Shown: piece after piece, positions 13,472 to 61,016 of the stretch | Position numbering within the stretch: position 1 is the stretch's first letter | How the letters are laid out: every line of letters begins with the position of its first letter | NCBI GenBank assembly: GCA_016193585.1 | Contig: JACPRW010000002.1 | Span: 1 to 61,982, forward strand | Direction of reading: 5' to 3' | DNA: 61,982 nt | DNA from: Candidatus Aenigmatarchaeota archaeon | GTDB lineage: Archaea > Aenigmatarchaeota > Aenigmatarchaeia > GW2011-AR5 | Translations under genes and position numbers: made by a program | Notes under the pieces: generated by a model | Told to the model about the DNA's origin: nothing | Seen by the model: the letters and a program-made list of their open reading frames with translations, nothing else | Database searches by the model: none

Positions 13472-13896
13472 TTTTCATAGATTCCAATATGTGGTGCTAC
13501 TTCTTTGATGAATCCGCAAGAGAAAACAAGAAAGTCGTTGAATTCGTGAAAAGAATTTTAGAAAAAGAGGAAGTAGCCATAAATACTGCTGTAATTACAG
13601 AAATAGCGCATTTCCTTATCAAAAATCTTGGCCCGGTGAACGGGAAGAAAAAAATTGAAACGTTCCTCGAATTCCCGCTTGTGGTAAGAGACGTAACATA
13701 CGCCGATACCAAAGATTCTATTGAGCTACTGTGCCAGTATGCCCATGAAGGAATAGGTGGCAGGGATGCCACGCTGCTCAGCAGCATGAAAAAACTTGGC
13801 ATACAGAGAATTGCCACGCATGACGCGGCATTCAAAAAAGTAGAATGGGCAGATGTGATCGATCCGATACAAAATAATAATAGTAAAGAACATTGA
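13469..13896 (+). CDS. vapC: PIN-domain toxin (VapC-like)
   Basis: MIFIDSN start, acidic residues spaced as in PIN, IATHD motif. The stop codon lies inside a hairpin repeat. Confidence 0.7.
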
Positions 13897-13973
13897 TTTT
13901 GGAACATTTTACAATGTTCTTTCCATATAGCAGATTGTGGTAAAAGTTCCATTATTATTACAATCTGCTATAA
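13878..13973. repeat. Hairpin-module repeat lying exactly between convergent vapC and aspartate aminotransferase stop codons
   Basis: Copy of 463-560. Overlaps both stop codons. Confidence 0.85.
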
Positions 13974-22610: not shown

Positions 22611-22853
22611 TATAGTGGACCAACAAAAGAATACCGACATAGTACTTTTGTTGTCCGCTACACGCGGAAAACAAGGTTTTCCGGTGCACCAAAAAGCTTT
22701 GCTTTTTGCGTGTAAGTGAACCAAGATATAGATAATTGCGCAGCTTATGTCGTATTAACGCGCAATTTTCTATAGGTGAATTGCAAATAATATCAGGACA
22801 TAACCAGTGCAATTCACCATATAATACCTGATTATTTACTTGGTTCACTATAA
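22611..22853. repeat. Composite hairpin-module repeat (about 240 bp), rearranged relative to 29045-29288
   Basis: Shares the aattgcgc, gtgaattgca and gtgaaccaag modules and a ggaaaacaaggttttcc hairpin. Track ORF 22555-22848 falls inside it and was rejected. Confidence 0.85.
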
Positions 22854-25287: not shown

Positions 25288-25478
25288 TCATAGTAAAGAA
25301 CATTGATTTTGGAACATTTTACAATGTTCTTTCCCTATAGCAGATTGTGGTTATAGTGAAGCAAATAAATAATACCGATATTATACATTTGCTTCACATA
25401 TAGCAAACAAGGAAGTAATATCGTGTTTATTTCCTTGTATTGCTATAAAAGTTCCATTATTATTACAATCTGCTATCA
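25288..25478. repeat. Nested hairpin repeat. The family A unit (modules 1 plus 2) is inserted into the loop of the gcagattg hairpin.
   Basis: Compare with the uninterrupted copies at 463-560 and 13878-13973. The insert equals 8209-8304. The last module overlaps the valS stop codon. Confidence 0.85.
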
Positions 25479-29044: not shown

Positions 29045-29288
29045 TATAGATAATTGCGCAGCTTATGTCGTATTAACGCGCAATTTTCTATAGGTGAATT
29101 GCAAATAATATCAGGACATATAGTGAACCAAGTAAATAATCAGGTATTATATCTTGGTTCACTTACACGCAAAAAGCAAAGCTTTTTGGTGCACCGGAAA
29201 ACTTTGTTTTCCGCGTGTAGCGGACAACAAAAGTATTATGTCGGTATTCTTTTGTTGGTCCACTATAACCAGTGCAATTCACCATATA
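29045..29288. repeat. Composite hairpin-module repeat (about 240 bp), partner of 22611-22853
   Basis: Track ORF 29054-29329 lies inside it and shares its peptide with ORF 22555-22848, so it is a repeat artefact. Confidence 0.85.
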
Positions 29289-30527: not shown

Positions 30528-30706
30528 TATAGTGAAGCAAATAAATAATACCGATATTATACATTTGCTTCACATATAGCAAACAAGGAAGTAATACAAG
30601 GTGGATTCCATGAATCCACCTGTACAGGAGAATCTTCGATTCTCCTCGTATCATGTTTATTTCCTTGTATTGCTATAATACGACATAAGCTGCGCAATTA
30701 TCTATA
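30528..30706. repeat. Family A repeat with inner insert, plus aattgcgc module
   Basis: Near-identical to 46-225. Confidence 0.85.
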
Positions 30707-32909: not shown

Positions 32910-33443
32910 ATGATGCTTTTCCATCGGCTTTTCAGCGTCATGGACATGCTGCATCCAGCACGGGTTGCCTACGCCCACTGCGACATCCCGTGCGGCATCT
33001 ACGACCCTCACCTTGCCCAGCAGGCCGCGCATACGGTCATTCGCATGGTTATGCTTATCGAAGAAGCAACGGCAAAATTCAAGGCACTAGCAAACCCGAT
33101 AGCAGAGGACAGGCGCGAGTTTGTCACCAAGCTTGCCCGCTACACTGCAACGAAAGAGCAGCACGCCGAGCTGTGTAAACACGAAGTCCGCATCCTGTGG
33201 GGCGACTACTTCAAGCCTGAGCACATCCAGAAATACCCTGAACTGCACGAGCTGGTGTGGAAGGTTATGAAGCTGGGGTCCATCGCGCGGCAGTCGGTCG
33301 ATATGCAAACCGCTGAGGAGCTGCTCGAGGCCGCGAACCGCGTTGCCGAGATATTCTGGGAAACCAAGGGCATGGGCCACGCGCGCTACCCGGCGCCGAA
33401 CCCTACCGGCCGGCAAACCGTCTATCCGACGGGGAAGAAGTAA
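32910..33443 (+). CDS. sodN: Nickel-containing superoxide dismutase precursor
   Basis: Ni-hook HCDIPCGIYDP after a 22-aa propeptide. LWGDYFKPEH, YPELHELV and IFWETK blocks as in Streptomyces SodN. Confidence 0.85.
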   Translation: MMLFHRLFSVMDMLHPARVAYAHCDIPCGIYDPHLAQQAAHTVIRMVMLIEEATAKFKALANPIAEDRREFVTKLARYTATKEQHAELCKHEVRILWGDYFKPEHIQKYPELHELVWKVMKLGSIARQSVDMQTAEELLEAANRVAEIFWETKGMGHARYPAPNPTGRQTVYPTGKK

Positions 33444-33525: not shown

Positions 33526-33816
33526 TATATGGTGAATTGCACTGGTTATGTCCTGATATTATTTGCAATTCACCTATAGAAAATTGCGCGTTATAGTGAA
33601 GCAAATAAATAATACCGATATTATACATTTGCTTCACATATAGCAAACAAGGAAGTAATACAAGGTGATCGTGTTTATTTCCTTGTATTGCTATAATACG
33701 ACATAAGCTGCGCAATTATAGCTGACCAACTTAATATTCAGGTATTACACAAGTTGGTCACATATAGTGAACCAAGTTATAATATCCGGATTCTTTACTT
33801 GGTTAACTATATCTAT
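33526..33816. repeat. Composite hairpin-module repeat (gtgaattgca, aattgcgcg, family A with 8-nt footprint caaggtga, tgaccaactt and gtgaaccaag modules)
   Basis: Module 2 here carries only caaggtga where 97-213 carries the 56-nt insert. Confidence 0.85.
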
Positions 33817-35185: not shown

Positions 35186-35560
35186 ATGAAATCTATATAT
35201 GTCTATTTAAATCTTGTCATCAATAGAATACAAGATTTTATGCAGAAAATAAAGGAAAGCGAGCTTGTTTCAGCGCGACTTAGCCCAAAAGAAATGGAAG
35301 CTATAGAGACCTTGGTAGAAGAAGGCTTCTATATGAACACGGCGGATTTCGTGAGAATGGCTGTACGGGAAAAGCTGGAGTCTATTAAAATAATAGACGT
35401 ACGCGACTTAAGCAAGGACAAGGCCAGGAAGGAAGTTATAGAATACATCAAGGATAACAAGCAAGCATATCCGAGCGATATATCTGATGCATTGAAAATT
35501 GATTTTGATATGGTTCTAGAAATAGTAAAAGAACTGGCGAAAGAGGGCAGAGTTAAATGA
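35186..35560 (+). CDS. Ribbon-helix-helix plus winged-helix transcriptional regulator
   Basis: RLSPKEMEAIETLVEEGFYMNTADFVRMAVREKL is a CopG/RHH motif. C-terminal wHTH. AT-rich. Start possibly at MQKIKES (35243). Confidence 0.55.
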   Translation: MKSIYVYLNLVINRIQDFMQKIKESELVSARLSPKEMEAIETLVEEGFYMNTADFVRMAVREKLESIKIIDVRDLSKDKARKEVIEYIKDNKQAYPSDISDALKIDFDMVLEIVKELAKEGRVK

Positions 35561-36018
35561 TACTTCGGGATTTGGGCGATGAAGTTCAGGGAGAGCAAAT
35601 TGTCTGCTTTTACAGGAAAAGAGACAGAGAAATATTGTTCCCCATGACGTCAGGTCACCGAGGCCTGAGAGTTAAGATAAAAGGCTTACCTGCACGTGCT
35701 GTCGTAGAAAAGCAAATTGAGTTTTTGAGATGAAATGCCCCTTGTTACTACCGGCTGATTCACGGAGAGCGGAGCTCTCCTGAATTCCTTGCAGAACCAA
35801 GTTCTGCGAGGTTTCAGAGAACTTTGTTCCCTGCAAATCTCAAGGGGCTTACAGAGGCCCTTTGCAGAAAAGTCCGTGGTTTCTTTGTGCAGAAAACTCT
35901 GAAAGAGTTTTCTGAAAACGTCAGAAAGCTTTTCTTTCTGCACGTTGTGCATTTCTTTCGAATTCATCCCCTCATCCGCTGACTGAAGCCAGCGGTTTTC
36001 GGGAGGATTCAAAATAAA

Positions 36019-36729: not shown

Positions 36730-36764
36730 CGTATCTTTAAAAATAGTGCCACCAAGTACTGTCT

Positions 36765-36941
36765 ATGCCGGCTGATTTGGAAAAAATACAAAAGGATCTC
36801 GCGGGGCTCAAAAGAGACATTGCGTTCATCAAGCATGTTCTTGTAGAGGAATACGAAATGAGCGGCTACGCAAAGAAAGCCCTGAAAAAGGCGAGGGAAA
36901 CGCCCAAATCAAAATACGTCAGCTTAGAAGAGCTTGGTTGA
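36765..36941 (+). CDS. Putative antitoxin (58 aa), partner of the disrupted relE-like gene. Not in the ORF track.
   Basis: MPADLEKIQKDLAGLKRDIAFIKHVLVEEYEMSGYAKKALKKARETPKSKYVSLEELG. Its stop overlaps the toxin ATG (TGAATG). Confidence 0.45.
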   Translation: MPADLEKIQKDLAGLKRDIAFIKHVLVEEYEMSGYAKKALKKARETPKSKYVSLEELG

Positions 36942-37503
36942 ATGGCATACGATGTCAGGCTACATCCTGCCGCAGATGATTTTTTAAAATGCTCCCGAAA
37001 CATGTTTCTGCGAGAATCAAGGAAAAATTAATAGTATGTTCTGTTGATTAGTGAACATTTCATCTTGAATGCCTTGAAAACTGCTACCTTCAGGCAGCAA
37101 ATGCAACAAGGCATTCGGGATCTTCAAAGAGCAGAGCTCTTTGAGATCTCAACTGCGGAAAGCTTCCACTTTCCGCAGTTGCAGATGCCATGCTCCACGG
37201 AAACCACCGACTGCAGTCGGTGGTATAGAGGAGCATATCATGCAGAACATACCCTATAGCAGGTTCAGGTGAAAAGTTTGGTTATTACGTGAACCTACTA
37301 TAATAAGAGCCATAAAGGAAAATCCATTCCATTATCTTGAGCTTTTGAAAGGAGAAAACGTTTACAAGCTGCGCATCGGCGGCTACAGGGAACTGATAGA
37401 CATCGATTTCAGGGAAAAAGTTCTTTACGTCCGTGTTCTCGGCCACAGAAAAAGAATTTGCAATGGTAGTTGGATATGCCCCTCCTCATGCGCTTCAAGG
37501 TAA
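36942..37503 (+). pseudogene. relE: RelE/ParE-family toxin gene split by a 260-bp MITE insertion. N-fragment 36942-37031, C-fragment 37303-37503.
   Basis: N-part MAYDVRLHPAADDFLK... C-part IKENPFHYLELLKGENVYKLRIGGYRELIDIDFREKVLYVRVLGHRK. The C-part is in a different frame. Confidence 0.6.
37040..37302. mobile_element. Composite MITE (family B) inserted in relE. Core atgccatgctccacggaaaccaccgactgcagtcggtggtatagaggagcatatcatgc...ctatagcaggttc-hairpin-tactata, plus three extra hairpins.
   Basis: Second copy of the about 115-bp core at 54161-54277. Non-coding and all-hairpin. Confidence 0.75.
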
Positions 37504-37757
37504 GAGACCGTAGCATGGAGCCAGCGCTCCGTGAGGGCGACTACGTGCTCGTGAGCAGCGTGCCGTTCATGGTCAGACGGCCTGCTGCAGGCGACATTGT
37601 TGTCGCACGGCACAAGGGAATGTTCGTCATCAAGCGGATACGGGAGACAGAAGGAGACGTGTACACGCTTCTCGGAGACAACCCGCATGGCAGCGGCTTC
37701 CGCGTGCCGAAAAAAGCCATTGTCGGCAAGGTTGTCCTGCACGTACGGAAAAAATAA
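37470..37757 (+). CDS. sodX: S26-family signal-peptidase-like protease, candidate NiSOD maturation peptidase SodX
   Basis: Catalytic Ser in RDRSMEPALREGDYVLV and Lys in FVIKRIRE. 95 aa. About 4 kb from sodN. Confidence 0.6.
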   Translation: MDMPLLMRFKVRDRSMEPALREGDYVLVSSVPFMVRRPAAGDIVVARHKGMFVIKRIRETEGDVYTLLGDNPHGSGFRVPKKAIVGKVVLHVRKK

Positions 37758-39169: not shown

Positions 39170-42100
39170 ATGCTTCAATCTTCTCTGCAACCATCAGCAA
39201 GTGCCAAGCGCGTTCGCCGTACATGGTGCACCCTCTTCATACCCATTGCTGTCCTGCTTCTTGTAGCGAGTTTAAAGGCTACGCCTGCAGAAGCTGGATG
39301 CGTAACAGACGGTGGCTGGTCAGCAACGTGTAATTCTGGTAACATATACGGTGGAGGGGCCCCAAATACTAACCCATGCGTCAGAAGCGCAGGTGGATGC
39401 GGTATCGCATCAGTTGAATGCGAAAATGTTTGCTTGTTTTATAATAACAACTGCGGATTAGCTTCTGGTTGCTATTGCTCTGGGGGGAGTGTTTTGCAAC
39501 CATTCTGCGGGGGGCCGAACAAATGCTATAACCCAAAAGAACGCTATGGTAAAAGTGTTTGGTGCGGCAATGGAAAATATTGCGATCAGCAATGTGAGTG
39601 CGACAATTTATGCGGCGGCGCGCCGCCGCCGGGTAGCACGTGTTCAGCCGGCTGGAAATGCAAAAGCCCGACAACGAAAGGCTATCAGAGCAGCAACTGC
39701 GCATGGTCGCAGGAACAATACTGCAACTATGGCTGCTCCAATGGAAACTGCAATTCGGCTCCAGTGACGGCAAGCAATGACGCCGCTTTCGTAGAGCAAA
39801 CCGTGCCGTCAACGATGTGCGTCGGGCAGGTAGCGGCAGTAACCGTGAAAATGAGGAACACGGGAGGGTCGATATGGAATGCAGCTGACAATTACCGGCT
39901 TGGTGCGCAGAAGCCATCCCAAGACAGCGATCGGTGGGGCAATACAAGAGCTTATCTTGTGCCGTACATCAACTACTGGAACGGCGGTGTGGACACTGCG
40001 ACGTTCAACTCGCCGGGGTCAACGTGGAACGTGGTGCCCAATGCCGCGGGCACCTATGAGTTCCAGTGGCAGATGGTCAGGGATGGCGTTGGGTGGTTTG
40101 GCCAGAAGACGAATTCGGTGTCGGTGACCGTCCTTGCTGTGCCATCGTCGGCGCCGTCGCTGACGCAGCCTGCCTATAATCAAAAATTTCCCCCTGGCAC
40201 GTCGTCGGTGACGCTGAAGTGGAGCAGCGTCGACGGCGCGACCAGCTATGACGTGCGGGTCACCGATGATAACGATGCGGCGGATACGAGCAACATCGTC
40301 GGCGCAAATAGTAACTGTGCGCCAAGCTTAGACGTATGTTACGATGGCTGGACAAACAGAGAAATGACGATTACGGTGCAATCAGGCAAGCGGTACAAAT
40401 GGTGGGTGCACGCCAAAAACCAGTGCGGTTCTGGCGGCGGGTCGGCAAACTACGAATTTCTTGTCGATACCAACAGCCCGCCGGCGGCATCCATTGCTTC
40501 AGGCGCATCAGCCGGCTGCAGCGGCACTGCTTACACGTACGCCGCATCGGGCTCTGATGTGAACAGCAACCTCTACGATATAGCGCTCTATGTGTCTCCG
40601 ACATCCAGCAGGAGCGCGACATTGATGGGCGAATGCTCATTTGCGGACACGTCATCGTACAATTGCCAGAAGTCCTGGACACCGTCAGGAGCCGGCGCCT
40701 ATTACGTGTTCGTGAACGCGTGGGACCGGGCAGGCGGCCAGTGCTCTGGTAATCCATGGTGCGATTTCGATGGCGGCTCGCTCAGCTGCGACGCAGGCAG
40801 CAACTGCGTCTATTGTACGGGCTGGTCGCGCTGCGGGTCAAGCGACCGCACGACGGTCACCATTTCCAGCAATGAGTGCTCGGCAGCAGGCGTCATCGAA
40901 TGTTCCAGCAACCAGGCGCGCACCTGCGGCAGCAATTACGACGGCGATCCGTGCCTCGAATGGAGCTCGTACACGAGCTGCGGCAGCACGCAGTCGTGTG
41001 CATCAGGTTACAGCGGCTCCTGCGCCAATTCATGCAGCACAGCATCAGGTTGCGTCAGCTGTACGCTCACCTACACGGGAAGCTCGCCGACCTGCTGCGG
41101 CAATGACGGCACGAGCGTCGGCAGTAGCGGAACATGCTGTTCAAATCTTGTCAAGTGCGACGGCGTCTGCCGCAGCCGCAGTTCGTGCAGCTGCGACGAC
41201 GGCAATGCGTGCACCACCGGCGATACCATTCAGGCTGATGGCGTGTGCCGGGGGACAGCCTACGCGGCATCAGGAACGCCGTGCGGCACCACTGCATGCG
41301 GCTGGAACCAGGTCGGCAGCGGATGCACGCGGTACTGCAACGGCGCAGGAACCTGCAACAGCTGCCCGCCATCGTGCACGGCATCGTTTGGAACGTCCAT
41401 CGAATCGGTCTGCGTCAATAACGTGTGCAGCGGCGACGTGAGCGTGCCGACAACCGGCACCATTACGGCAGAGATTACCGTCAAAAACACTGGTGCCTTT
41501 TCCCAGGCGTGGTGGTTTGTCGGCGCCGAAGCCATGAGGGTCGGCAATTATAATGACCCCTATAACTCACGGTATGGCACGTCGCTCATCACGAAGTACT
41601 ACAACGGCAAAGACGATTACGGTGACTGCACGGTGAGCGACGCATCCGACATACCGTCAGGCGGAACACGGAAAATAACCTGCACCTTCCCTGCGGCGTC
41701 ATTTGGCGCAACGAGCGGCATCGAGCGCGTCATGTTCTGGGTGCATGAGCGGGACCTTGGCCAGGACAGGAACGGCGGCTGCGCGGTATGGGACGGGAGC
41801 AGTGATACGTACTACAAAACGTGCGGGAATGCAGTCAATTGTTACAGTGCCACTCCTGTCAGTTTATCGTGCGACCAACGCTATTATAGTCTCAGGAACG
41901 AGTTGCTGTCGCAGTACGGCCAGTGCTGGCAGTATGGTCAGAATGTGTGCAATGAACTCCAGGAATGGATAGAGTCTCTTGACAAATGCTATAGTCAGGC
42001 TGACTGCGATTTATTCAGAAATCATGCCCGGTATTCGTGCGACCCCAACCGCATCCCGATACCGAGTTACGTATGCGACAAGATGCAGCTGTACGACCAG

Positions 42101-44131
42101 AGATGTTACCGGAGCCGGTCGAATGGGTGCTGGGGCGGCTCGTGGTGGGACGACGCGCTCGCAACTGCAGCGCCTGCGGCGGTCAGGGTTTCGCTGATCG
42201 ACTGCACCGGTTCAGGCGGAGCGACTGGCCCCGGCGGTTACTGCTGCAGCGGCCTGACGAAATGCAGCGGCGACGTCTGCAGAAGCATCTGTACCGGCGA
42301 TTCCTGCAATGACGGCAGTCTGTGCACGTTCAATGACCGCATACAGGCTGACGGCTCGTGCAGGGGAACCATACACTCCTGCCCGGACGTGAAATGCGGG
42401 AGATTCGTGTGCGACGGCAACGGCGGGTGCACCGGCTCATACGTGAGCGTATGGTGCACCGACGACAATGCGTGCACCGCCGGCGATTTCTGCAGTGAAG
42501 GCTCCTGCCGGGCGACGGCCTACACCTGCCCTCCGCAGTCGTGCCCTGCTGATTCCTGCGCAAGCTCGACGTGGTACTCGACGTGGTACGATTACCCTGC
42601 GTCGTGCACGCGAAGCTGCCTCGGCAACGGCGCGTGCAGCGTCTGCGATTGCACGGCACAAACAACCGCGTGCACTGCCGGCAGCGGGTGCTGCGTTGCG
42701 CGGTGCTCAGCGGGCAGCGGGTGCTCGACAGCAGCAGGCTCGTGCGCTGATCTGTGCAGCGCGAATACGCTCACCATCGGACAAAGCTGCAGCGGGTGCG
42801 GGGCGAATGGCGCTGCAGGGAATTGTGGCGGCGGGACAAGTTATACGTGCGACGCGACATCGCATACGCTCTGTCAGCAATACTCATGCGGCGGCAGCAC
42901 GTACTCCTGCACGAATGCCGGCGGAAGCTGGTCGTGGAGAACAGCAACAGGCTGCAATGACAACAATGCATGCACGTACAACGACGCATGTGCAAGCGGC
43001 TCGTGCCGGGGAACGTCCTATGCGTGCAGCGACGTCTGCACCATGAACACGCTCACCATCGGCAGGGGATGCAACGGCGACGGCACGTGCGGCAGCGGCA
43101 CGTCCTATGCATGCGATGCCACAACGTACACGAGCGGCCAGCAGCTGACGTGTGGCGGTCTGCAGAAGTGCTGCACCTATGCCTCCGGCAGCTGGCAGTG
43201 GTCGTCATCGTGCGACAGCAATGCGCCATCCAGTGGCTGGACAGGCAGCAGCTTCGGGGCATATGATAATGACGGTACAGCATCAGCAACCGTATCATGC
43301 GCCGACAGCGGCAGCGGGCCGAAGGACGCGTGGGTCGCCAAAAAAGTCAATAATGCATGGCAGTACTACTGCGCTGACGGAACATGGCAGACGGACTCCG
43401 ACTGTAATAGCCACAATGGCATCGGCTTTTTATCATCCACGTATGCGTGCACCTCAACCGGCGCTGACGGACACCGTCTTCAATGTGCTGTCCGGTGCAG
43501 GGACAATGCGCTTAACGTTGATGCAAGCTGGGATTACACGACAGACTCATTAGTGGATACGTCTGCGCCAACATCTGGCTGGACAAGCAGCACCTTTGGG
43601 ACGTATGACACAGATGGCAGCGCTTCAGCTGTCACGTCGTGCAGTGATTCAGGAAGCGGAATCAGGGACGTATACGTAGCTTGGAGAGTCAATGGACTCT
43701 TTGCCAATTATGGTTATCAGGCATATCCCTATACCTGCACCTCAACCGGTTCTAATGGCCAGTATATTCAATGCGCTGTCCGGTGCAGGGACAATGCCGG
43801 CAATTTAGATGATAGCTGGGATTACACGGCTGGGACAATAGTGGACACTGCTCCTCCGTCCACCAGTTCTTCATCTTCCGTCACCGCCAACCAGTACAAC
43901 TGGTACACCTCGAACGTCGCGGTCACGCTGGCGTGCAGCGACACCGGCGGCAGCGGCTGCGGGGCGACGAAGTACTGCACCGATACGGCGGGCACGTGCA
44001 CGCCGACGACGACGTACAGCGCCGCGGTCACCATCAGCAGTCGAGAACCCTGCTCATCGACAAGACCGCGCCATCCGGCGTTTCGGTATCGAATACCAAC
44101 GGCTATTGGTCAGCAACAACCATACCCGTAA
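39170..44131 (+). CDS. Giant secreted Cys-rich adhesin-like protein, N-terminal 1,653 codons. Signal peptide, Cys-rich modules, CARDB/DUF11-like and FN3-like domains, four CxDxNxCT..D..C..G.CRG repeats, Ig-like repeats.
   Basis: Signal peptide MLQSSLQPSASAKRVRRTWCTLFIPIAVLLLVASLKATPAEA. About 150 Cys. The track frame ends in junk after AVTISS because of a frameshift at about 44040. Confidence 0.8.
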   Translation: MLQSSLQPSASAKRVRRTWCTLFIPIAVLLLVASLKATPAEAGCVTDGGWSATCNSGNIYGGGAPNTNPCVRSAGGCGIASVECENVCLFYNNNCGLASGCYCSGGSVLQPFCGGPNKCYNPKERYGKSVWCGNGKYCDQQCECDNLCGGAPPPGSTCSAGWKCKSPTTKGYQSSNCAWSQEQYCNYGCSNGNCNSAPVTASNDAAFVEQTVPSTMCVGQVAAVTVKMRNTGGSIWNAADNYRLGAQKPSQDSDRWGNTRAYLVPYINYWNGGVDTATFNSPGSTWNVVPNAAGTYEFQWQMVRDGVGWFGQKTNSVSVTVLAVPSSAPSLTQPAYNQKFPPGTSSVTLKWSSVDGATSYDVRVTDDNDAADTSNIVGANSNCAPSLDVCYDGWTNREMTITVQSGKRYKWWVHAKNQCGSGGGSANYEFLVDTNSPPAASIASGASAGCSGTAYTYAASGSDVNSNLYDIALYVSPTSSRSATLMGECSFADTSSYNCQKSWTPSGAGAYYVFVNAWDRAGGQCSGNPWCDFDGGSLSCDAGSNCVYCTGWSRCGSSDRTTVTISSNECSAAGVIECSSNQARTCGSNYDGDPCLEWSSYTSCGSTQSCASGYSGSCANSCSTASGCVSCTLTYTGSSPTCCGNDGTSVGSSGTCCSNLVKCDGVCRSRSSCSCDDGNACTTGDTIQADGVCRGTAYAASGTPCGTTACGWNQVGSGCTRYCNGAGTCNSCPPSCTASFGTSIESVCVNNVCSGDVSVPTTGTITAEITVKNTGAFSQAWWFVGAEAMRVGNYNDPYNSRYGTSLITKYYNGKDDYGDCTVSDASDIPSGGTRKITCTFPAASFGATSGIERVMFWVHERDLGQDRNGGCAVWDGSSDTYYKTCGNAVNCYSATPVSLSCDQRYYSLRNELLSQYGQCWQYGQNVCNELQEWIESLDKCYSQADCDLFRNHARYSCDPNRIPIPSYVCDKMQLYDQRCYRSRSNGCWGGSWWDDALATAAPAAVRVSLIDCTGSGGATGPGGYCCSGLTKCSGDVCRSICTGDSCNDGSLCTFNDRIQADGSCRGTIHSCPDVKCGRFVCDGNGGCTGSYVSVWCTDDNACTAGDFCSEGSCRATAYTCPPQSCPADSCASSTWYSTWYDYPASCTRSCLGNGACSVCDCTAQTTACTAGSGCCVARCSAGSGCSTAAGSCADLCSANTLTIGQSCSGCGANGAAGNCGGGTSYTCDATSHTLCQQYSCGGSTYSCTNAGGSWSWRTATGCNDNNACTYNDACASGSCRGTSYACSDVCTMNTLTIGRGCNGDGTCGSGTSYACDATTYTSGQQLTCGGLQKCCTYASGSWQWSSSCDSNAPSSGWTGSSFGAYDNDGTASATVSCADSGSGPKDAWVAKKVNNAWQYYCADGTWQTDSDCNSHNGIGFLSSTYACTSTGADGHRLQCAVRCRDNALNVDASWDYTTDSLVDTSAPTSGWTSSTFGTYDTDGSASAVTSCSDSGSGIRDVYVAWRVNGLFANYGYQAYPYTCTSTGSNGQYIQCAVRCRDNAGNLDDSWDYTAGTIVDTAPPSTSSSSSVTANQYNWYTSNVAVTLACSDTGGSGCGATKYCTDTAGTCTPTTTYSAAVTISSREPCSSTRPRHPAFRYRIPTAIGQQQPYP

Positions 44132-44600
44132 CGGTCAGCCGGGGCACCGACGCCCAGTCAGGCATGTCAGCAACCAATGCAGATTACCTCCTTGAGGTCG
44201 CCTCATCGGCACTGTCCGGAGGAACATGCCCCAGCTTTGGCGGCTATGCCGATGCCGGTGTCCCGGAAACAGCAGCTGCCACCAGCTACACCTATACCGG
44301 CACCTCGGGTAATTGTTATAAATTCCGCTACACCGTGGCGAATGCTGCGGGCTTGCCAATAACCTATACAGGAACCGATGTTACGAAAATCGACACGGCA
44401 GTTCCGGTAACTACGCCGTCGCTCTCTGGAACTGATGGCTGGAAAAGCTGGGGCGACTGGTACACCTCGAACGTCGCGGTCACGCTGGCGTGCAGCGACA
44501 CCGGCGGCAGCGGCTGCGGGGCGACGAAGTACTGCACCGATACGGCGGGCACGTGCACGCCGACGACGACGTACAGCGCCGCGGTCACCATCAGCAGTGC
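44042..44600 (+). CDS. Middle segment of the same giant gene, readable only in frame 1 (SRTLLIDKTAPSGVSVSNTNGYW ... YSAAVTISS)
   Basis: Part of track ORF 43933-44736. Bounded by two frameshifts at duplicated junctions. Confidence 0.6.
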
Positions 44601-46759
44601 AGTCGAGAACCCTGCTCATCGACAAGACCGCGCCGGTGTACCAGAGCTACGACGTGAGCGGCTGCGGTTACAAAACTGCCAACACGTGCTGGGTCAAGGC
44701 AGGCACCACGACGTACCACTATACCCGCCACACTGATGCCCACGCGACGCCCGCGTACCAGTACCTCACCTTCACCAAGGACGGCTGCGCGCCGAACAAC
44801 TGTGCTGCGAACAACGAAGTTAAATCCTACGTGTATGTCGACAGCGGCGCGCTCACCGACTGGATGGTGAACAATGCGTTCCTCGATATCACTGCCACAG
44901 CGTGCCAGACTGCCGGCGGCTGCACGGGCACCGACGTCACTGAGCAATGGTCGGTGTCAGCCGGCAATGCCGAAGGCGACTTCACCGTATGGACGTTCCT
45001 CTATGACGCCGCCGGGAACGGCATCGGCTACACCAACACCGGCTGGTCGTACAAGATTGACAGTACCCTGCCGTCAGCATCAATCAGCATCAACAATGGC
45101 AACGCACGGACGGTATCCTCGTCCGTGACGCTCACCCTCGCGTACGCCGACGCGCGCTCCGGCGTCAAGGACTGCCGGTACAGCAACGACGGTTCTGTAT
45201 GGAGTTCGTGGGAAAACTGTGGCACGACCAGGTCATGGACGCTCTCCGCAGGCGACGGCACGAGGGCGGTGTATTATCAGGTTCGCGATAATGCAGAAAA
45301 CGTGCAGCAAACGAGCGACACCATCGTGAAAGTGAGTTGCTCAGGCTACACCATCAATGGCGTGTGTGATAGGGATTGCGGCGGCCACGCCTCGTGCCAG
45401 GGCGACACGCCGGGGGCAAACCTCGTGCATTGTAACCTGGGAGCCAGGTCATATTTCGTTGACACGTGTACCGCCACCTGCCAGCCGGTTGACATGGATG
45501 CGGTGTGCAAAAGCGACTTGTCCCATGGCTCATGCACCGCGGACCGCAGCTGCGGCGGCATCACTGCAGGCCAGTGCGGTTCGTCGTCAATGTTATGCTC
45601 AAGCAGTTGCACCGCGGTATCGTGCCCGGGTGGCTGTTCCGGTGGCGTGTGCGCGGGCGGCGACGTGGTCTCGGCAATCACCGTGCCGTCGACGAGCACG
45701 TGGAAGCGAGAGAGCTTCACCGCCACGGCGACCGACACGCCTGTGGCATATCTCGCCACGAACACATGCCAGTACAGGGTCGAAAGCCTTGACGGGTCGG
45801 AAAACGTTGTTCATGATACGGGATGGCGCACCAGGTCCTGCAATGGCAACATCCCGTCCATAACATTGGGCGCTACCGGCGACTGCCGCGTCGAGGGCAG
45901 CGCCAGGTGCCGCGTCACGGTGCGGGCGAGCAACATCGCTGGCAGGCAGGGCACGGCGGACACGAAGACGTACAGCGTCGACTGGACAGCGCCAACGTAT
46001 GCAAGCTACGAGTTGTCAGGCTGCGACTACACGAGCGGCACCACCTGCTGGGTCAAGAGCGGCACGGTGACGACGCACACCATCCGCCACACCGATGACC
46101 GCGCCACGCCGTTGCAGCAGTACCTGTCGCTCGCATGGAATGGCTGCAATCCAATTTCATGCGCGGGGTGGGAAATCAGAAGTTATGTAAATGTTGACAC
46201 CGGCGCATTTGTTGATGATCCTCTATTGCAGAACAACAACTACCTCGACATCACAGGCACGACGTGCACCGAATCAGGCGGCTGCACGGGCACCGACGTC
46301 ACTGAGCGATGGTCGGTGTCAGCCGGCAATGCCGAAGGCGACTTCAAGGTCTGGACGAAGATGATTGACCACGCGGGGAACGGCGACACGTGGGCGGATA
46401 CGGGGAAGTGGCTCAAAGTCGATGCAGTAGCGCCCAGCCTGAGCACTGTGGTAACGCCTGAAAGGCTGTGGTACAACGGCCAGGTAACCATCGCACCGAC
46501 GGAATCAGACAGCCGTTCCGGCATCGCGTCGTGCCAGTACCAGGTGACGGATGGCATCAACGACGCGACCGACGGCATCTGGCGCACGCGCACCTGCGGC
46601 TCTCCGGTCGCCGTGAGCGTCGGCGCATCAGGCTTGTGCGCCGCCCAGGGCACCAACGCATGCACCGTCACGCTGCGTACGCTGGACAATGTGGGGAACA
46701 GCCAGCCGGTAACACGGAGCTTCAGTGTCGACTACACGGCACCGGCGTCGAGTTCGTAA
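44435..46759 (+). CDS. C-terminal 774 codons of the giant adhesin-like gene (meaningful from about 44598). Ig-like/Big-like repeats with Y..DxAGN motifs.
   Basis: RTLLIDKTAPVYQSYDVSGCGYK... Repeated about 100-aa modules ending in DxTxP. Same frame as 39170-44131. Confidence 0.75.
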   Translation: MAGKAGATGTPRTSRSRWRAATPAAAAAGRRSTAPIRRARARRRRRTAPRSPSAVQSRTLLIDKTAPVYQSYDVSGCGYKTANTCWVKAGTTTYHYTRHTDAHATPAYQYLTFTKDGCAPNNCAANNEVKSYVYVDSGALTDWMVNNAFLDITATACQTAGGCTGTDVTEQWSVSAGNAEGDFTVWTFLYDAAGNGIGYTNTGWSYKIDSTLPSASISINNGNARTVSSSVTLTLAYADARSGVKDCRYSNDGSVWSSWENCGTTRSWTLSAGDGTRAVYYQVRDNAENVQQTSDTIVKVSCSGYTINGVCDRDCGGHASCQGDTPGANLVHCNLGARSYFVDTCTATCQPVDMDAVCKSDLSHGSCTADRSCGGITAGQCGSSSMLCSSSCTAVSCPGGCSGGVCAGGDVVSAITVPSTSTWKRESFTATATDTPVAYLATNTCQYRVESLDGSENVVHDTGWRTRSCNGNIPSITLGATGDCRVEGSARCRVTVRASNIAGRQGTADTKTYSVDWTAPTYASYELSGCDYTSGTTCWVKSGTVTTHTIRHTDDRATPLQQYLSLAWNGCNPISCAGWEIRSYVNVDTGAFVDDPLLQNNNYLDITGTTCTESGGCTGTDVTERWSVSAGNAEGDFKVWTKMIDHAGNGDTWADTGKWLKVDAVAPSLSTVVTPERLWYNGQVTIAPTESDSRSGIASCQYQVTDGINDATDGIWRTRTCGSPVAVSVGASGLCAAQGTNACTVTLRTLDNVGNSQPVTRSFSVDYTAPASSS

Positions 46760-47235: not shown

Positions 47236-47439
47236 TATAGTGAAACAAGAAAATAATACCGACATATTACTTCTTGTTTCACATATCCCCAGAAAGCAGA
47301 GCTTTCTGGGATCTCGAAGAACCTCTGTTCTTCGCAGATAGCAAACAAGGAAGTCATACAAGGTGGATTCCATGAATCCACCTGTACAGGAGAATCTTCG
47401 ATTCTCCTCGTATCGTGTTTATTTCCTTGTATTGCTATA
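47236..47439. repeat. Family A variant with two extra inserted hairpins (cagaaagcagagctttctgg, cgaagaacctctgttcttcg) and the 56-nt inner insert
   Basis: Shares module 1 and 2 ends with 8209-8304. Lies in the promoter region of the 46867-47187 gene. Confidence 0.8.
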
Positions 47440-47509
47440 ACATCAATATCAGCATCAGTATCAATAGCAGTGATTAATAGTATTTAAATCTTTACATTCA
47501 TGTAAAGAT

Positions 47510-47791: not shown

Positions 47792-47972
47792 GGGTCTTCG
47801 TATGACACTCCCGGTTGAAGTATGGAGAAATGCGCAGCATATGTCCTTAGAGGCTGCGCATTTCTCATCTAGCGAATTGCGTTTTCACAGGTCATAAGCA
47901 ACGCAATTCTCTATAACAGTCTTTCAAAAATCCCCTAATTATGGCATTCAAGTTTCAAAAGCGATCATTGAT

Positions 47973-52720: not shown

Positions 52721-52861
52721 TTCTTGGAACGTTTCGGCCGCACGTGCACCATGTCGCCGTGCTTGCTGCCGCTACGGGATTTTCGTACCACTCGTTCGAG
52801 GCCATGTAAGAAAATTTCCATACTTCAAAGTAGGAAAAAGTTTAAATATACATTCATACAA

Positions 52862-53131
52862 AAGAGCAGTATGCACATCAAAAGGGCGGTTGGCGAAAAG
52901 GGGCAGGTCGTGGTGCCCAAGGACATACGGGAGCATCTAGGTCTCAGGCCCGGGACGAATGTGATATTCGAGGTCACAGGGAAGGACGTCGTCATCAAGG
53001 CGGAAAAAGACCCGAAAGATTTCGTGGAAGACTTTTGCAACGTCGTCCCGAAGAGCAAGCGGAAGAAGCTGGGCATAAAAAAAATCAAGCAGCTACTCGA
53101 TGAGCAATATGAAGAAGAGCTTATACGTTGA
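52862..53131 (+). CDS. vapB: AbrB/SpoVT-type antitoxin (VapB-like)
   Basis: GEKGQVVVPKDIREHLGLRPGTNV swapped-hairpin motif. Confidence 0.65.
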   Translation, partial: KSSMHIKRAVGEKGQVVVPKDIREHLGLRPGTNVIFEVTGKDVVIKAEKDPKDFVEDFCNVVPKSKRKKLGIKKIKQLLDEQYEEELIR

Positions 53132-53531
53132 CGCGAACGTGTTCATTGTCGCTGGCGTGTACCCCCAGGAAAGCCCCGAATTCAAAGCAGCGAAAAAACT
53201 GCTCTATGCGGTTTCCAGTGGCGAAGCCGAAGCTGCGACATCTCTGCTGACGTGGGATGAGCTTGTCTGGGTCGTCAGGCGAATGGCCGGCAATGAAGCA
53301 GCCGCGGAAGAAGGCAAACGGTTCCTTGAAATCCCGAACATGAAATTCCTTGGAGTGACTGAAAACATCATCCGGAAAGCGCAAAATATTACTGAGCGTT
53401 ACAACCTGAAACCCCGGGACGCTATCCACACGGCAAGCGCCATAGTGAACAATGCCGGCAGCATCGTCAGCGATGACGCTGACTTTGATGCCGTCAGGGG
53501 ACTGAAGCGAATTGCACTGGAGCGCGCGTAG
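53100..53531 (+). CDS. vapC: PIN-domain toxin (VapC-like)
   Basis: LYVDANVFIVAG N-terminus. Conserved D/E/D spacing. IVSDDADF. Confidence 0.65.
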   Translation: MSNMKKSLYVDANVFIVAGVYPQESPEFKAAKKLLYAVSSGEAEAATSLLTWDELVWVVRRMAGNEAAAEEGKRFLEIPNMKFLGVTENIIRKAQNITERYNLKPRDAIHTASAIVNNAGSIVSDDADFDAVRGLKRIALERA

Positions 53532-54160: not shown

Positions 54161-54277
54161 ATGCCATGCTCCACGGAAACCACGACTGCAGCCGGTGGTA
54201 TAGAGGAGCATATCATGCTGAACATACCGTATAGCAGGTTCGAACGAAAAGTTCCAGTAGTATTCGAACCTACTATA
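54161..54277. repeat. Second copy of the family B MITE core
   Basis: About 95% identical to 37179-37302 except for the terminal hairpin, which differs in sequence but not in structure. Confidence 0.75.
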
Positions 54278-54333
54278 AGTGATTATTCGTGTGCACTTTT
54301 AAATAATGCAGCACACTAGACATATGATTGATT

Positions 54334-54531
54334 CCCGCGATAGTTTGGATTCAGAAGGAATCCGAACTGCCGTGGGGCGAAAACCCGCGATAGTTTGGAT
54401 TCAGAAGGAATCCGAACTGCCGTGGGGCGAAAACCCGCGATAGTTTGGATTCAGAAGGAATCCGAACTGCCGTGGGGCGAAAACCCGCGATAGTTTGAGC
54501 TTGTGCTCGAACTGCCGGGAAGAGGCATTTT
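54334..54531 (+). repeat. Tandem array: three exact 50-bp units plus one degenerate 48-bp unit. Each begins with CCCGCGATAG, the first 10 nt of the downstream tRNA, and carries a ggattcagaaggaatcc hairpin.
   Basis: Unit cccgcgatagtttggattcagaaggaatccgaactgccgtggggcgaaaa at 54334, 54384 and 54434. Degenerate copy at 54484. No spacers. Confidence 0.8.
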
Positions 54532-54651
54532 CCCGCGATAGCTCAACGGTAGAGCACCTGGCTGTAGCCAAGCACCGACGGTGCTACGGAATCCAGCCTG
54601 TGCTTTCAAGCAGTCACCAGGGGGTTCTGAGTTCAAATCTCAGTCGCGGGA
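54532..54651 (+). tRNA. Intron-containing tRNA, probably tRNA-Tyr(GUA), with a roughly 48-nt intron at 37/38
   Basis: Acceptor CCCGCGA/TCGCGGG. D arm GCTCAACGGTAGAGC. Anticodon stem CCTGG/CCAGG with loop CT-GTA-G|intron|A. T arm CTGAG-TTCAAAT-CTCAG. Discriminator A. A 4-bp helix CTGT/GCAG flanks the putative splice bulges. Confidence 0.7.
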
Positions 54652-54712
54652 TGGGGAAGAAGGGTTCAGTTCTCCGACCTGTTATATAAAAGACGGGAAT
54701 GAGGAGGTGCAT

Positions 54713-56008
54713 ATGAACCAACCTGAGAAAATAGATGTCCACGGGTACGAAAGGCAGATAGAAATCCAGAGGAGTCTGCTGGAGAAAGCCCAAATAAAGG
54801 ATGACAACAGGCAGCTGATAAAGGACTTCATCAACTTCTGCGAGGTCGACCCTAAGGTAGGTCTGTCAAGGGTGCGTCTCTACTATTACACCCTCAGGCG
54901 TCTCGCCGAACTCACTGACAAAATTTTCAGGGAAATGGCCGAAGTGGACATAATTAACCTACTTGCCAAGCTTAAGGAGTACAAAACCTGCATCTGCAAG
55001 AAGAAGCAGAAAAACAGGGCTTCCTGCAAAGGCATGAAATGCCAAGGCAAAAGGTATTCTGAACAGTCTCTGCTAGACTTTAGGAAGGCCATAAGCAAAT
55101 TCTGGAGGTGGCTCTATTTTGACCAGTATTGCGGGCAAGCTCCGCCGCAAATAAGACGCATAAAGTGCGGTGCTCTCAGCAACAAGAAAGAACCTGATGT
55201 ATACAGCAAAGAGGAAATTAAGGCTCTCATAGACGGCATGACAACAATCAGGGACAAAGCCTTTTTCAGCTGCCTCTACGACCTGCAGTGCAGGGTATCT
55301 GAGCTTCTGTCACGGCAGATAAAGCATTTACGCTACACCGAAGGCGGAGACATCCAGATACTGATTGAAGCTGAAAAAACACAAATCAGCCATTGGGAAA
55401 CGCTCTTTGAGTCTGTTCCGCAGTTCGTGTCATGGCAGCGTCTTCATCCTATGCCATTCAATCCAAACGCACCCCTATGGACTGTAATGAAAAAATCAGG
55501 AAACATAGTCCCTCTCCACTATCCATTGGTTAGAAAGATATTCCTCAATGCGTGCAAAAGGCAGAATATAAGGCTGGGAAAGAGAAACAGCATACACATG
55601 ATACGCAAGAGCAAGGCTACTCACGACATGGCTGACGGTATACCTATAACCTTCATCGAGAGCAGGGGGAGCTGGACAAAAGGCAGCAGAGCACTCCAGA
55701 ATTGTTATCTTTCAGTTATCCAGAAGGACAAGGACAATGCATACAAAAAGAAGTACGGAATACCAGTAAACAACGGGCACGAAATTCCAATGGAACTCAA
55801 GACATGTACCCGATGCCACGTATACTTGGAAAACGCTGCGAAATTCTGCCATACGTGTGGGTTTCCCACAGACAGGTCTATAATGGCAAAGATGCAGGAA
55901 ATAAGCAAAGCTACAGCAGAACTGGTAGACAAAGACATGCTTTCAGAAATGATAAAGAAAATTGTCATGGCTGAACTGGAGAAGGATAAGGGTGCTAAAA
56001 GTGACTGA
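54713..56008 (+). CDS. Tyrosine recombinase/integrase with a C-terminal zinc ribbon
   Basis: Catalytic-box residues: R in LYDLQCRVSELLS, HMIRKSKATH, RGSW, Y in QNCYL. CTRCH...CHTCG ribbon. SD-like GAGGAGGTG before the ATG at 54713. Confidence 0.7.
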   Translation: MNQPEKIDVHGYERQIEIQRSLLEKAQIKDDNRQLIKDFINFCEVDPKVGLSRVRLYYYTLRRLAELTDKIFREMAEVDIINLLAKLKEYKTCICKKKQKNRASCKGMKCQGKRYSEQSLLDFRKAISKFWRWLYFDQYCGQAPPQIRRIKCGALSNKKEPDVYSKEEIKALIDGMTTIRDKAFFSCLYDLQCRVSELLSRQIKHLRYTEGGDIQILIEAEKTQISHWETLFESVPQFVSWQRLHPMPFNPNAPLWTVMKKSGNIVPLHYPLVRKIFLNACKRQNIRLGKRNSIHMIRKSKATHDMADGIPITFIESRGSWTKGSRALQNCYLSVIQKDKDNAYKKKYGIPVNNGHEIPMELKTCTRCHVYLENAAKFCHTCGFPTDRSIMAKMQEISKATAELVDKDMLSEMIKKIVMAELEKDKGAKSD

Positions 56009-59396: not shown

Positions 59397-61016
59397 ATGG
59401 GTAATCAAATTCATAAAAACGCTCTAGTTTATTGTTTAGCGTTCCTTTTGTTTGCTAGTTTTCCAGTTTTAGCTGTTATAAACTTGCAATATTCTGTTTC
59501 CCCTTCAAGTAAAACTTTGTATTGGGATGAAACACTGACCGTAACTGCTTGGGTAAAAAATACGAATATGTTCACAGGAGGCTATTGCAGGGCTTCTGTT
59601 GTTGAAATACCATCCTCAGTTACTCAATGGATTTCTGTAGCTGCAGGACAATCTCAGAATATCTATTTGTACATACCGGCACCATCAACTGGACAGGCTA
59701 CAGTTCAGTACAATGTTAAAATAGAATGTTATGATAACGGCGACCCCACTATAGCTACAAAATACGGGACGGTAACTGTAACTTATCCTCCTATCGAACA
59801 ATTAGACGCCTATAACAGCCTAACATCGGCATCCGCTTTTGTTCAAGATGCTAACTCTGCAAAGACATCCGTACAATCCACCGTAAACGAGGCTGGTTCT
59901 TCTTGCACAAAAGCACAGACACAGTGGAACTCTGCAACTAACTATCTAAATACTGCTAATTCAAAATACTCGACAGCAAATAATGCCTACGCCTCCAAAA
60001 GCTTTAGCACTGCCCAATCAGATGCCAATAGTGCACAGCAGTCTGCTCTATCAGCTAAAAATAGTTTCAATACGGCATTAACAGAAGCAAATGCATGTCT
60101 GGGTCAAAAACAAGAGGCATCTGCAGCACTTACGAACACTAAAAACACGATAACAGAAGCCACAAATTCAAAAAATAGTGCTGAAAGCACTGTTAGTCAA
60201 GCCGGTTCTTCCTGCACATCAGCCCAGTCCAGCTGGACATCTGGAACAACTTTGATTGCAGACGCAGAGTCTAAATACTCAACCGCACAGAGCAATTACA
60301 ATTCTAATAACTACGAATCAGCCAAGACGAACGCCAACGCAGCTCAACAATCTGCTGTACAAGCGAAAAGTAATTTCAACGCTGCTTCAACATCAGCTTC
60401 AAGTTGTTTACAAGCCCAGAAGTCAGCAACTGGAAAAATTAGTTCTGCTCAAAATGCCATAAATCTAGCAGGCAGTCTTATAGAATCAGCTAAATCAATA
60501 GATGCTTCAGTTGAACAGTCAACGAAATATTTAGACTCTGCTAAAGAATATTTGGAACAAGCGAAGATTGCAGAAAGAAATAAAGATTCTGCTTCGTCCT
60601 CGAATAATGCGGATGCTGCATCTAGCAAAGCCATATTATCACAAAGCGAAGCCAAGAATTCTATAGCTAAAAGAGCACAAGAAATCATAGATAACTCAAA
60701 AGCAAAGCTTAGTGTGGTAGAAAGTACGGAAAGCAAATACAATGTTGATATACCAACCAGTTCCGTTAGTGAATCTATACAAAAAACAACAGACAGCTTA
60801 GCTTCTGGAGACTACTTTAAAGCTGCAGAAAACGCAAAGATTTTGTCGTCTCAAGCGGCTGAAGTAGAGGCTAGTGCAAACAAAATTACCGGACAAATAA
60901 CAGCGTCTAACACTACTTATCTTGCTGGGGGCATCGTGGCGGTTCTGCTAATCGGTGGCGGAATTTACTGGTTCAAATTCAGAAAAAAAGGAAAATCGAA
61001 GCCTAAGAGAGATTAA
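59397..61016 (+). CDS. Surface protein: signal peptide, CARDB-like N-domain, two about 100-aa Ser/Ala/Asn-rich tandem repeats, helical stalk, C-terminal TM anchor plus basic tail
   Basis: Repeat units begin ...VQSTVNEAGSSCTKAQTQWNSATNYLNTANSKYSTANNAY and ...STVSQAGSSCTSAQSSWTSGTTLIADAESKYSTAQSNY. C-terminus GGIVAVLLIGGGIYWFKFRKKGKSKPKRD. Confidence 0.6.
   Translation: MGNQIHKNALVYCLAFLLFASFPVLAVINLQYSVSPSSKTLYWDETLTVTAWVKNTNMFTGGYCRASVVEIPSSVTQWISVAAGQSQNIYLYIPAPSTGQATVQYNVKIECYDNGDPTIATKYGTVTVTYPPIEQLDAYNSLTSASAFVQDANSAKTSVQSTVNEAGSSCTKAQTQWNSATNYLNTANSKYSTANNAYASKSFSTAQSDANSAQQSALSAKNSFNTALTEANACLGQKQEASAALTNTKNTITEATNSKNSAESTVSQAGSSCTSAQSSWTSGTTLIADAESKYSTAQSNYNSNNYESAKTNANAAQQSAVQAKSNFNAASTSASSCLQAQKSATGKISSAQNAINLAGSLIESAKSIDASVEQSTKYLDSAKEYLEQAKIAERNKDSASSSNNADAASSKAILSQSEAKNSIAKRAQEIIDNSKAKLSVVESTESKYNVDIPTSSVSESIQKTTDSLASGDYFKAAENAKILSSQAAEVEASANKITGQITASNTTYLAGGIVAVLLIGGGIYWFKFRKKGKSKPKRD

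Follow-up and report, generated by a model that had tools for sequence, protein, structure and literature searches.

Structure of the locus

The DNA considered here (the window) is the whole contig JACPRW010000002.1, 61,982 bp long with a G+C content of 51.5%, from a metagenome-assembled genome (MAG) of a Candidatus Aenigmarchaeota archaeon, a member of the DPANN archaea. Its plus strand carries a small gene, HYY37_01170, followed directly by the remains of a gene of the RelE/ParE toxin superfamily, which are split by a 270-nt insert. The toxin gene has no intact open reading frame (ORF) and is a pseudogene. The locus very probably represents a decayed type II toxin-antitoxin module in which the toxin gene suffered a frameshift and the insertion of a MITE (miniature inverted-repeat transposable element), with the partner gene left intact. 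The coordinates of all features are collected in Table 1.

The ATG at 36942 opens the reading frame MAYDVRLHPAADDFLK..., which stops after 29 codons (36942-37031). An earlier interpretation of the locus, made from the DNA letters and called here the sequence-only reading, had located this start and stop correctly and had taken all 29 codons for a RelE-like frame. Only the first 16 codons are in frame, ending with a lysine codon at 36987-36989; thereafter the homologous reading passes to the +1 frame up to 37030, and the 29-codon ORF comprises 16 genuine and 13 out-of-frame codons. This shift after codon 16 indicates a 1-nt deletion in the T6A4 run, which had been missed. At the same site the homologues read L-(D/E/R)-(R/K)-L-(P/D)-(K/Q) in a four-sequence alignment.

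The 3' part of the gene resumes in a frame different from that of the 5' part, as had been proposed, with the sequence ...IKENPFHYLELLKGENVYKLRIGGYRELIDIDFREKVLYVRVLGHRK... and continues through to the stop codon at 37501-37503. When the A-run in the T6A4 tract was lengthened by one A and 272 nt were cut out, that is the 270-nt element plus one TA, an ORF of 96 amino acids (aa) was restored. Deletions of 270, 271, 273 or 274 nt failed to restore the frame, while 272 (or 275) nt worked. The insertion point is a TA in codon 30/31 of the toxin gene. Behind ...HRKRI the C-terminal tail is 11-14 residues longer than in the aligned homologues, which could be natural variation; a third lesion is also possible. 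No functional toxin can be made from the pseudogene. The sequence-only reading had regarded the locus as a clean case of inactivation by a MITE. The insertion of a MITE was borne out, but the frameshift in the homopolymer, upstream of the insertion, is a second and independent lesion, and the MITE cannot be stated to be the inactivating event.

The toxin fragments belong to one protein

A near-identical version of the repaired toxin matched the Pfam profile PF05016 (ParE_toxin) over profile positions 1-87 of 89 (E = 3.1e-5). The C-terminal fragment alone scored 14.9 bits, which is under the cut-off, and the 29-codon ORF alone gave no Pfam score. The only match of the repaired toxin in an index of 5.8 billion proteins was the intact 84-aa protein P0001, to which it is 52% identical over residues 1-83 (BLASTP); the one gap in this alignment, of 2 residues, falls precisely where the fragments meet. 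Two more intact homologues, L054 and L055 (38% and 56% identity), were found via genomic context and are likewise colinear with the repaired toxin. In the four-sequence alignment the three archaeal homologues share 38-56% identity with it, and each of them passes PF05016 at 30-33 bits. Among solved RelE-type toxins, weak end-to-end alignments were obtained with 2KHE (E = 0.0013), 1WMI and 3BPQ. Judged by these alignments, both pieces of the gene encode adjoining stretches of a single RelE/ParE-family protein; that both flanks of the insert join colinearly into a single domain had been suspected in the sequence-only reading and holds against all three homologues, P0001 included. NCBIfam contains no model for the toxin or for the antitoxin-like protein.

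The repaired toxin resembles other members of the RelE/ParE superfamily (PF05016), including aRelE of Pyrococcus horikoshii (1WMI) and RelE3 of Methanocaldococcus jannaschii (3BPQ), in its size (about 85-95 aa), in the match to the whole-domain profile and in its place directly after a small partner gene of the same orientation. Unlike these members, the copy in the window is a pseudogene, frameshifted and interrupted by 270 inserted nt. The similarity to solved members is weak (E = 0.0013-0.04), and the intact subfamily may act either as an mRNA interferase (RelE) or as a gyrase poison (ParE).

The small upstream gene

The 58-codon ORF at 36765-36941 on the plus strand had been described before and is present. 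It had been called unannotated, whereas the public record holds it as HYY37_01170, a hypothetical protein. The overlap of its stop codon with the toxin start, also claimed previously, was not confirmed: the TGA (36939-36941) and the ATG (36942-36944) abut and have no base in common. The protein family comprises 92 representative clusters at E <= 1e-3, mostly of 53-68 aa and aligning end to end. A profile search yielded 120 clusters from Nanoarchaeota, Woesearchaeota, Thermoplasmatota, Hodarchaeales and Aenigmarchaeota. The family consensus reads ...H.DL..LK.D...IK..L.EE.ELS..AKK.L..AR.TP.S.Y. Because its length is normal for this family, the 58-aa ORF is judged to be intact.

A ParE_toxin-type gene follows next on the same strand in all three readable homologue contexts, with a spacing that ranges from a 4-nt overlap to a 2-nt gap. 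The overlap is 4 nt at L001, where the upstream ORF is 31% identical to that of the window (E = 7e-9), and 1 nt at L054; the 2-nt gap is found at L055-57. For P0004 the contig was not long enough to include a neighbouring gene. On the basis of this conserved gene pairing the 58-aa protein is considered antitoxin-like, and the family of 54-65-aa proteins is likely the antitoxin partner of a ParE/RelE subfamily. The previous assumption that the antitoxin is probably intact agrees with the normal length of the protein and with its conserved pairing with this toxin type. Archaeal antitoxins of the aRelB type are small and helical, and they wrap round the toxin to neutralise it. The protein encoded in the window is similarly small, is predicted to be helical and is encoded directly 5' of a RelE/ParE-type gene, a pairing seen in 3/3 contexts; it differs from the aRelB type in having no detectable similarity to a Pfam family or a PDB chain. 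The TATA-box-like motif TTTAAAAATA upstream of the ORF suggests a candidate archaeal promoter and a leaderless transcript of the two genes.

The insert is a composite hairpin element

The sequence-only reading had placed the insert at 37040-37302 and had recognised it as non-coding and self-complementary. These properties stand, while the boundaries are 37031-37300 (270 nt) and the proposed left edge was about 9 nt off. The predicted RNA fold of the plus strand (37025-37310) has an energy of -126.9 kcal/mol, compared with -69.6 +/- 4.7 kcal/mol for 200 shuffled sequences (z = -12.2), and the minus strand of the insert region reaches -131.3 kcal/mol (z = -12.6). Since both strands fold equally well, the insert behaves as DNA palindromes do. 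Its ends are inverted repeats: TAGTATGTTC (37032-37041, offset for an extra 5' A) and GAACCTACTA (37291-37300), the latter read as its reverse complement, agree in 9 of 10 positions.

The outer parts of the insert correspond to a 92-nt unit that recurs elsewhere and is described below. Agreement with the canonical unit is 26/31 positions over the first 31 nt and 48/64 over the last 64 nt, and a covariance model of the unit matches the two halves of the insert (37031-37116 and 37220-37300). The insert is a unit of subfamily a in which the hairpin 1 loop contains approximately 175 nt of further stem-loops. In a BLAST comparison with the window, the right 119 nt of the insert recurred at 54161-54278 with 86.6% identity, and the last hairpin recurred at 503-560 with compensated stem changes. 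One inner module is common to the insert and the copy at 54161; the other inner hairpin modules were absent from every other fetched locus, and the extra material was absent from all 92-nt units in other genomes. Rfam revealed no RNA family for the insert at gathering or permissive thresholds, and its internal ORFs (71 and 48 aa) had no Pfam match. By these features the insert is a composite, non-coding repeat bounded by terminal inverted repeats and a target-site duplication. The earlier term composite MITE is a fair description, as the element recurs elsewhere and shows both terminal inverted repeats and a TA duplication.

Table 1 Features of the toxin-antitoxin locus and copies of the 92-nt unit in the window
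Feature	Position	Strand	Remarks
TATA-box-like motif TTTAAAAATA	36736..36745	+	About 24 nt 5' of the ATG of the small ORF; read from the sequence
Antitoxin-like gene HYY37_01170, 58 aa, intact	36765..36941	+	Unnamed family of 54-65-aa archaeal proteins
Toxin pseudogene, segment 1	36942..36989	+	Codons 1-16, MAYDVRLHPAADDFLK, original frame
T6A4 homopolymer tract with 1-nt deletion (frameshift)	36980..36989	+	With one A restored reads ...DDFLKMLPKHV...
Toxin pseudogene, segment 2	36990..37030	+	(M)LPKHVSARIKEKL, +1 frame relative to segment 1; ORF 36989-37051
Left TA of target-site duplication	37029..37030
Composite MITE, 270 nt	37031..37300	+	Terminal inverted repeats ATAGTATGTTC and GAACCTACTA
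Extra hairpin modules, about 175 nt	37062..37236	+	Nested in the loop of hairpin 1; boundaries approximate
Inner stem-loops, four	37062-37121, 37124-37144, 37150-37181, 37185-37241		Last one recurs at 54161-54217
Hairpin C, conserved right-hand module	37255..37302	+	TATAGCAG-stem-AAAAGTT-stem-CTACTATA; right TA is part of the foot
Right TA of target-site duplication	37301..37302
Toxin pseudogene, segment 3	37303..37503	+	IRAIKENPF...GHRKRI, then 14-residue tail CNGSWICPSSCASR, absent from homologues; stop 37501-37503
Strong copies of the 92-nt unit, partial or whole	466-557, 13880-13970, 25290-25475, 54161-54275		Covariance match of the last copy 54195-54275

A family of 92-nt hairpin units

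The 92-nt unit, which recurs in repeat-rich intergenic regions of the window, consists of ATAGTA, hairpin 1 and hairpin C (TATAGCAG-stem-AAAAGTT-stem-CTRCTA), and the 62-kb contig contains 5-6 copies of it. A scan with hairpin C gave 17 archaeal matches in reference genomes (Aenigmatarchaeota and unclassified archaeal MAGs), many of which lie at contig ends; the G+C content of the fetched stretches was 33-46%. About 19 real matches were found among metagenome contigs and none among viral contigs. Altogether approximately 36 archaeal and metagenome matches of the unit are located outside the window, at differing flanks. Six reference matches in Clostridium sp. and two look-alike metagenome matches were rejected as a coding-sequence coincidence in one conserved gene.

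The units split into subfamilies a and b, which can be aligned column for column over the 92 nt. Hairpin C has 10 pairs with 94% of the cells paired, and 2 of the 10 pairs differ between the subfamilies by compensatory double changes. Between genomes of 35-51% G+C the unit is 91-98% conserved, and the b-type copies of the window are 96-98% identical to a copy on a metagenome contig of 35% G+C. The stem arms of hairpin 1 are swapped between the subfamilies (ATGTTCAG...CTGAACAT versus AGAACATTG...CAATGTTCT), and the orientation of the loop TTGATTTTRGAACATTTT is constant. Hairpin 1 also holds the hexamer GAACAT/ATGTTC three times (472-510, 13885-13923 and 25295-25333; loci L008-L052), and this array may be protein-binding.

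The flanks were TA/TA at the insert in the toxin gene and in 24 of the 25 whole units tabulated. The window copy at 25290-25475 is flanked by TC/TC. Inside its hairpin C loop it contains a second type of element (TAG TGAAGC...TTGCTA) at 25352-25448, which is in turn flanked by TA/TA; the uninterrupted copies at L035 and L037 read GTGGT-TA-AAAGTT, which is the predicted empty site GTGGTTAAAAGTT of this nested element. The TC/TC copy, the empty site and the frame arithmetic of the toxin gene (element plus one TA) together indicate that the TA is a target duplication. Elsewhere in the window nesting reaches up to three levels. The copy at 25290-25475 abuts the stop codon (TCA on the plus strand, 25476-25478) of a minus-strand gene for a class I aminoacyl-tRNA synthetase, and the TC duplication is part of this junction.

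On the JACRMW01 contigs of one Aenigmatarchaeota MAG (L022-L025 and L028) many 92-nt copies share wider flanks, CAAAGAACTA...TAAAAGTTCTTTGGCGCATCAGAAAAC. As these flanks are mutually inverted, the unit is enclosed there by a larger hairpin element that is itself repeated; the majority of these copies lie at the ends of contigs.

No description of a 92-nt hairpin element family was found in the literature searched. The MITE family appears to be undescribed, as does the antitoxin family, and neither appears to have a database name. The elements are very small, duplicate TA, nest within each other and are nearly unchanged across Aenigmarchaeota of very different base composition. The 92-nt element breaks metagenome assemblies, with many copies at contig ends, and it could mark gene flow among episymbiotic archaea.

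Proposed history of the locus

The ancestral state would have been a two-gene operon in which a gene for a 58-aa helical, antitoxin-like protein was directly followed by a toxin gene of the RelE/ParE superfamily with 84-96 aa, and the module would once have been a working toxin-antitoxin pair. The toxin gene carries two lesions, which may have arisen in either order: the loss of 1 nt from the T6A4 run behind codon 16, and the insertion of a non-autonomous DNA transposon of 270 nt into the TA of codon 30/31, by which the TA was duplicated. The shell of the transposon is the 92-nt two-hairpin unit with the ends ATAGTA...CTRCTA, carrying about 175 nt of further hairpins in its first loop, and the transposon may have been moved by cut-and-paste through a transposase encoded elsewhere. 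A 2-bp TA duplication in combination with short inverted ends probably points to a DDE transposase of the IS630/Tc1-mariner type. It is common for a toxin-antitoxin pair to lose its toxin gene and for MITEs to insert into genes; the toxin pseudogene with its MITE is ordinary gene decay. Since the toxin is dead while the small gene is intact, the latter would now be an orphan antitoxin, and the locus offers a natural case for asking whether such genes persist after toxin loss.

The ends of Correia elements begin with TATAG(C/T)GGATTA, which is close to TATAGCAGATTG in the element of the window and may serve as a lead. TA-ended MITEs of bacteria (Correia/NEMIS, RUP, ERIC) and of archaea have many traits in common with the family described here. 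Their length is below 300 bp, they are non-coding and richer in A+T than the host, they possess terminal inverted repeats and a terminal 5'-TA-3' with target duplication, their transcripts are predicted to form long stem-loops, and they insert between and within genes. The terminal TA, the target duplication, the A+T-richness and the stem-loop transcripts of small MITEs have been reviewed (Delihas 2008, PMC2229807), and archaeal MITEs were described by Redder et al. (2001, as cited in PMC2229807). The present family differs from the bacterial MITEs in its DPANN host, in a basic unit of two short hairpins of about 44 nt each, in the nesting of units in each other's loops over several levels and in its 91-98% conservation across very different G+C contents; a partner transposase was not found.

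A duplication of TC, as seen at one copy, is unusual for the IS630/Tc1-mariner superfamily. Short inverted ends and a TA target duplication of 2 bp are traits shared with this superfamily and with Stowaway-like MITEs, and IS630 elements do occur in archaea (PMC13343696). The TC duplication of this one copy is a difference from that group, and neither a transposase of the IS630 type nor a full-length element with matching ends was found.

Several observations weigh against a decayed toxin-antitoxin module interrupted by a transposed MITE. The score of the near-identical repaired toxin for PF05016, 24.9 bits, is barely above the cut-off of 23. The 58-aa protein and a 45-member profile of its family had no match in Pfam, NCBIfam or the PDB, and no antitoxin or DNA-binding domain (RHH, AbrB, Phd/YefM, HTH, RelB) could be recognised in the protein. 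The TA is nearly invariant at both ends of the element and on most copies can therefore also be read as part of it. No transposase was found among 40 ORFs of the window (Pfam), nor between paired ends or beside the copies in the fetched loci, and for this reason mobility is deduced from footprints only. The right junction of the insert is known from the window contig alone; look-ups in other assemblies with the S24-like gene (two starts), the phosphoesterase gene (three starts) and the B3/4 gene (GTG start) found nothing. An uninterrupted allele was not found either; all contigs with the identical upstream gene carry the left junction. The nearest intact homologue of the toxin is 56% identical.

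Alternative explanations

The 92-nt unit and its 44-nt TAG...CTA relatives might constitute a conserved functional module of Aenigmarchaeota genomes, such as an RNA with a defined structure, a signal for transcription or a DNA hairpin bound by a protein, and the copy in the toxin gene would then be the by-product of an element that the host tolerates or uses. This explanation, which we consider unlikely, draws its support from the 96-98% identity, loops included, of copies at 35% and 51% G+C, from the compensatory changes that maintain the hairpins and from the threefold recurrence of GAACAT in hairpin 1. The near-identity of the unit across base compositions thus leaves a small probability of a functional or a recently exchanged module.

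Mobility by a different mechanism has a lower probability still. Elements with hairpin ends of the IS200/IS605 type (PATEs) or REP/RAYT-like repeats are moved by a single-strand Y1 transposase and not by a TA-duplicating DDE enzyme. Members of the IS200/IS605 family insert without target duplication, 3' of a fixed motif of 4-5 nt. Consistent with such an origin, hairpins make up nearly the whole element and have conserved feet and loops, the right foot contains GTAG on the minus strand, and no DDE transposase was found among 40 ORFs of the window; moreover, IS200/IS605 is the most abundant insertion sequence family in archaea (PMC13343696). Against it, the TC/TC copy, the empty site of the nested element and the frame arithmetic support a duplication of 2 bp, short inverted ends are present, and no Y1 or TnpB gene was seen.

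It is very improbable that the insert or the frameshift is an artefact of assembly or sequencing and that the real gene is intact. The contig stems from a metagenome bin, repeats of this element family break assemblies and have many copies at contig ends, and homopolymer runs are error-prone. However, the Logan contigs L003-L005, assembled independently from at least 12 sequencing runs or samples, encode the identical 58-aa protein and agree with the window in the T6A4 run and in the left junction. Their sequences break off 15-27 nt inside the insert, one of them diverging directly behind ...GTTGATTAG. Such breaks are those of a multi-copy repeat in short-read assembly, which argues against an artefact of a single assembly. 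The right end of the element, the TA and the frame relation are also mutually consistent.

The least probable explanation, to which we give hardly any credence, is a functional structured RNA or an intron, such as an archaeal bulge-helix-bulge intron (with its junctions in 3-nt bulges separated by a 4-bp helix), that is spliced out so that the toxin is still made: the extremely stable fold (z = -12), the frame restored by excision of 272 nt (element plus one TA) and the 91-98% conservation of the 92-nt unit between genomes of 35-51% G+C, with hairpins kept by compensatory changes, would suit it, but the frameshift at 36980-36989 would still kill the protein, both strands fold equally as DNA palindromes do, both junctions are placed in unpaired tails beyond the closing stems and not in a bulge-helix-bulge (by inspection of the predicted fold), the remaining copies are intergenic, with one of them interrupted in its turn, Rfam has no matching family, and the exact removal of any insertion restores the frame.

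Further repeats and genomic setting

A second repeat family, TATAGTGAAGCAAATAAATAATACCGATATTATACATTTGCTTCACATATAGCAAACAAGG...CCTTGTATTGCTATAA, is present in 5-6 copies in the window (29-228, 8210-8306, 25353-25448, 30529-30706, 33575-33720 and 47340-47440), and relatives with about 75% identity occur in other Aenigmarchaeota loci. Some of the copies hold a further nested insert, CAAGGTGGATTCCATGAATCCACCTGTACAGGAGAATCTTCGATTC.CCTCGTA, flanked by TA/TA; at 33640-33700 only CAAGGTGA is retained at this spot, which resembles an excision footprint. An outer hairpin, TATAGAAAATTGCGCG...CGCAATTATCTATAA, encloses some of the copies. In addition, solitary hairpins of 44 nt that follow the pattern TA-TAG...CTA-TA and have unrelated stems were found at 22729-22772, 29047-29090, 33765-33809 and 47870-47913. 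The window contains ten 44-nt TAG...CTA hairpins, compared with 0-3 in shuffled sequence, and the solitary hairpins suggest a superfamily of mini-elements of about 44 nt.

As judged by its genes, which include those for methionyl-tRNA synthetase (MetRS), a class I aminoacyl-tRNA synthetase, aRF1, an archaeal phosphoenolpyruvate carboxylase, pyruvate kinase, S-adenosylmethionine synthetase, ribosomal protein S8e and a nickel superoxide dismutase (Ni-SOD), the contig is chromosomal. The Ni-SOD gene is located at 32910-33443 (Pfam Sod_Ni, E = 1.4e-43). Directly 3' of the toxin pseudogene, a gene for an S24/S26-type peptidase of 93-95 aa (37470-37757) has its start overlapped by the long tail of the pseudogene; its top NCBIfam match, a Ni-SOD maturation protease, scored 45.5 bits and thus under the cut-off of 63.25 bits.

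The window contains further likely toxin-antitoxin loci. A gene with an RHH domain (35186-35560) has a 4-nt overlap with a 58-codon ORF (35557-35733), and a MazE/AbrB-type gene is accompanied by a PIN gene (52724-53531). A lone PIN gene (13411-13896), the stop codon of which falls within the MITE copy at 13880-13970, is also counted among them. Very large ORFs of 1653 and 774 aa, together with ORFs of 539 and 274 aa, had no Pfam match at E <= 0.001 (positions 39170-44131, 44435-46759 and 59397-61849).

Two intron-bearing tRNAs were detected on the contig with Rfam, although ARAGORN reported no tRNA in the window. Three tandem 59-bp repeats (54330-54490) are copies of the 5' part of an intron-bearing tRNA gene that lies next to them at 54532-54651 (CCCGCGATAG...). 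An ORF of 475 codons with a Phage_integrase domain (54581-56008) starts inside or just past this tRNA. The tandem tRNA-derived repeats and the integrase ORF look like the result of repeated integration at a tRNA attachment site.

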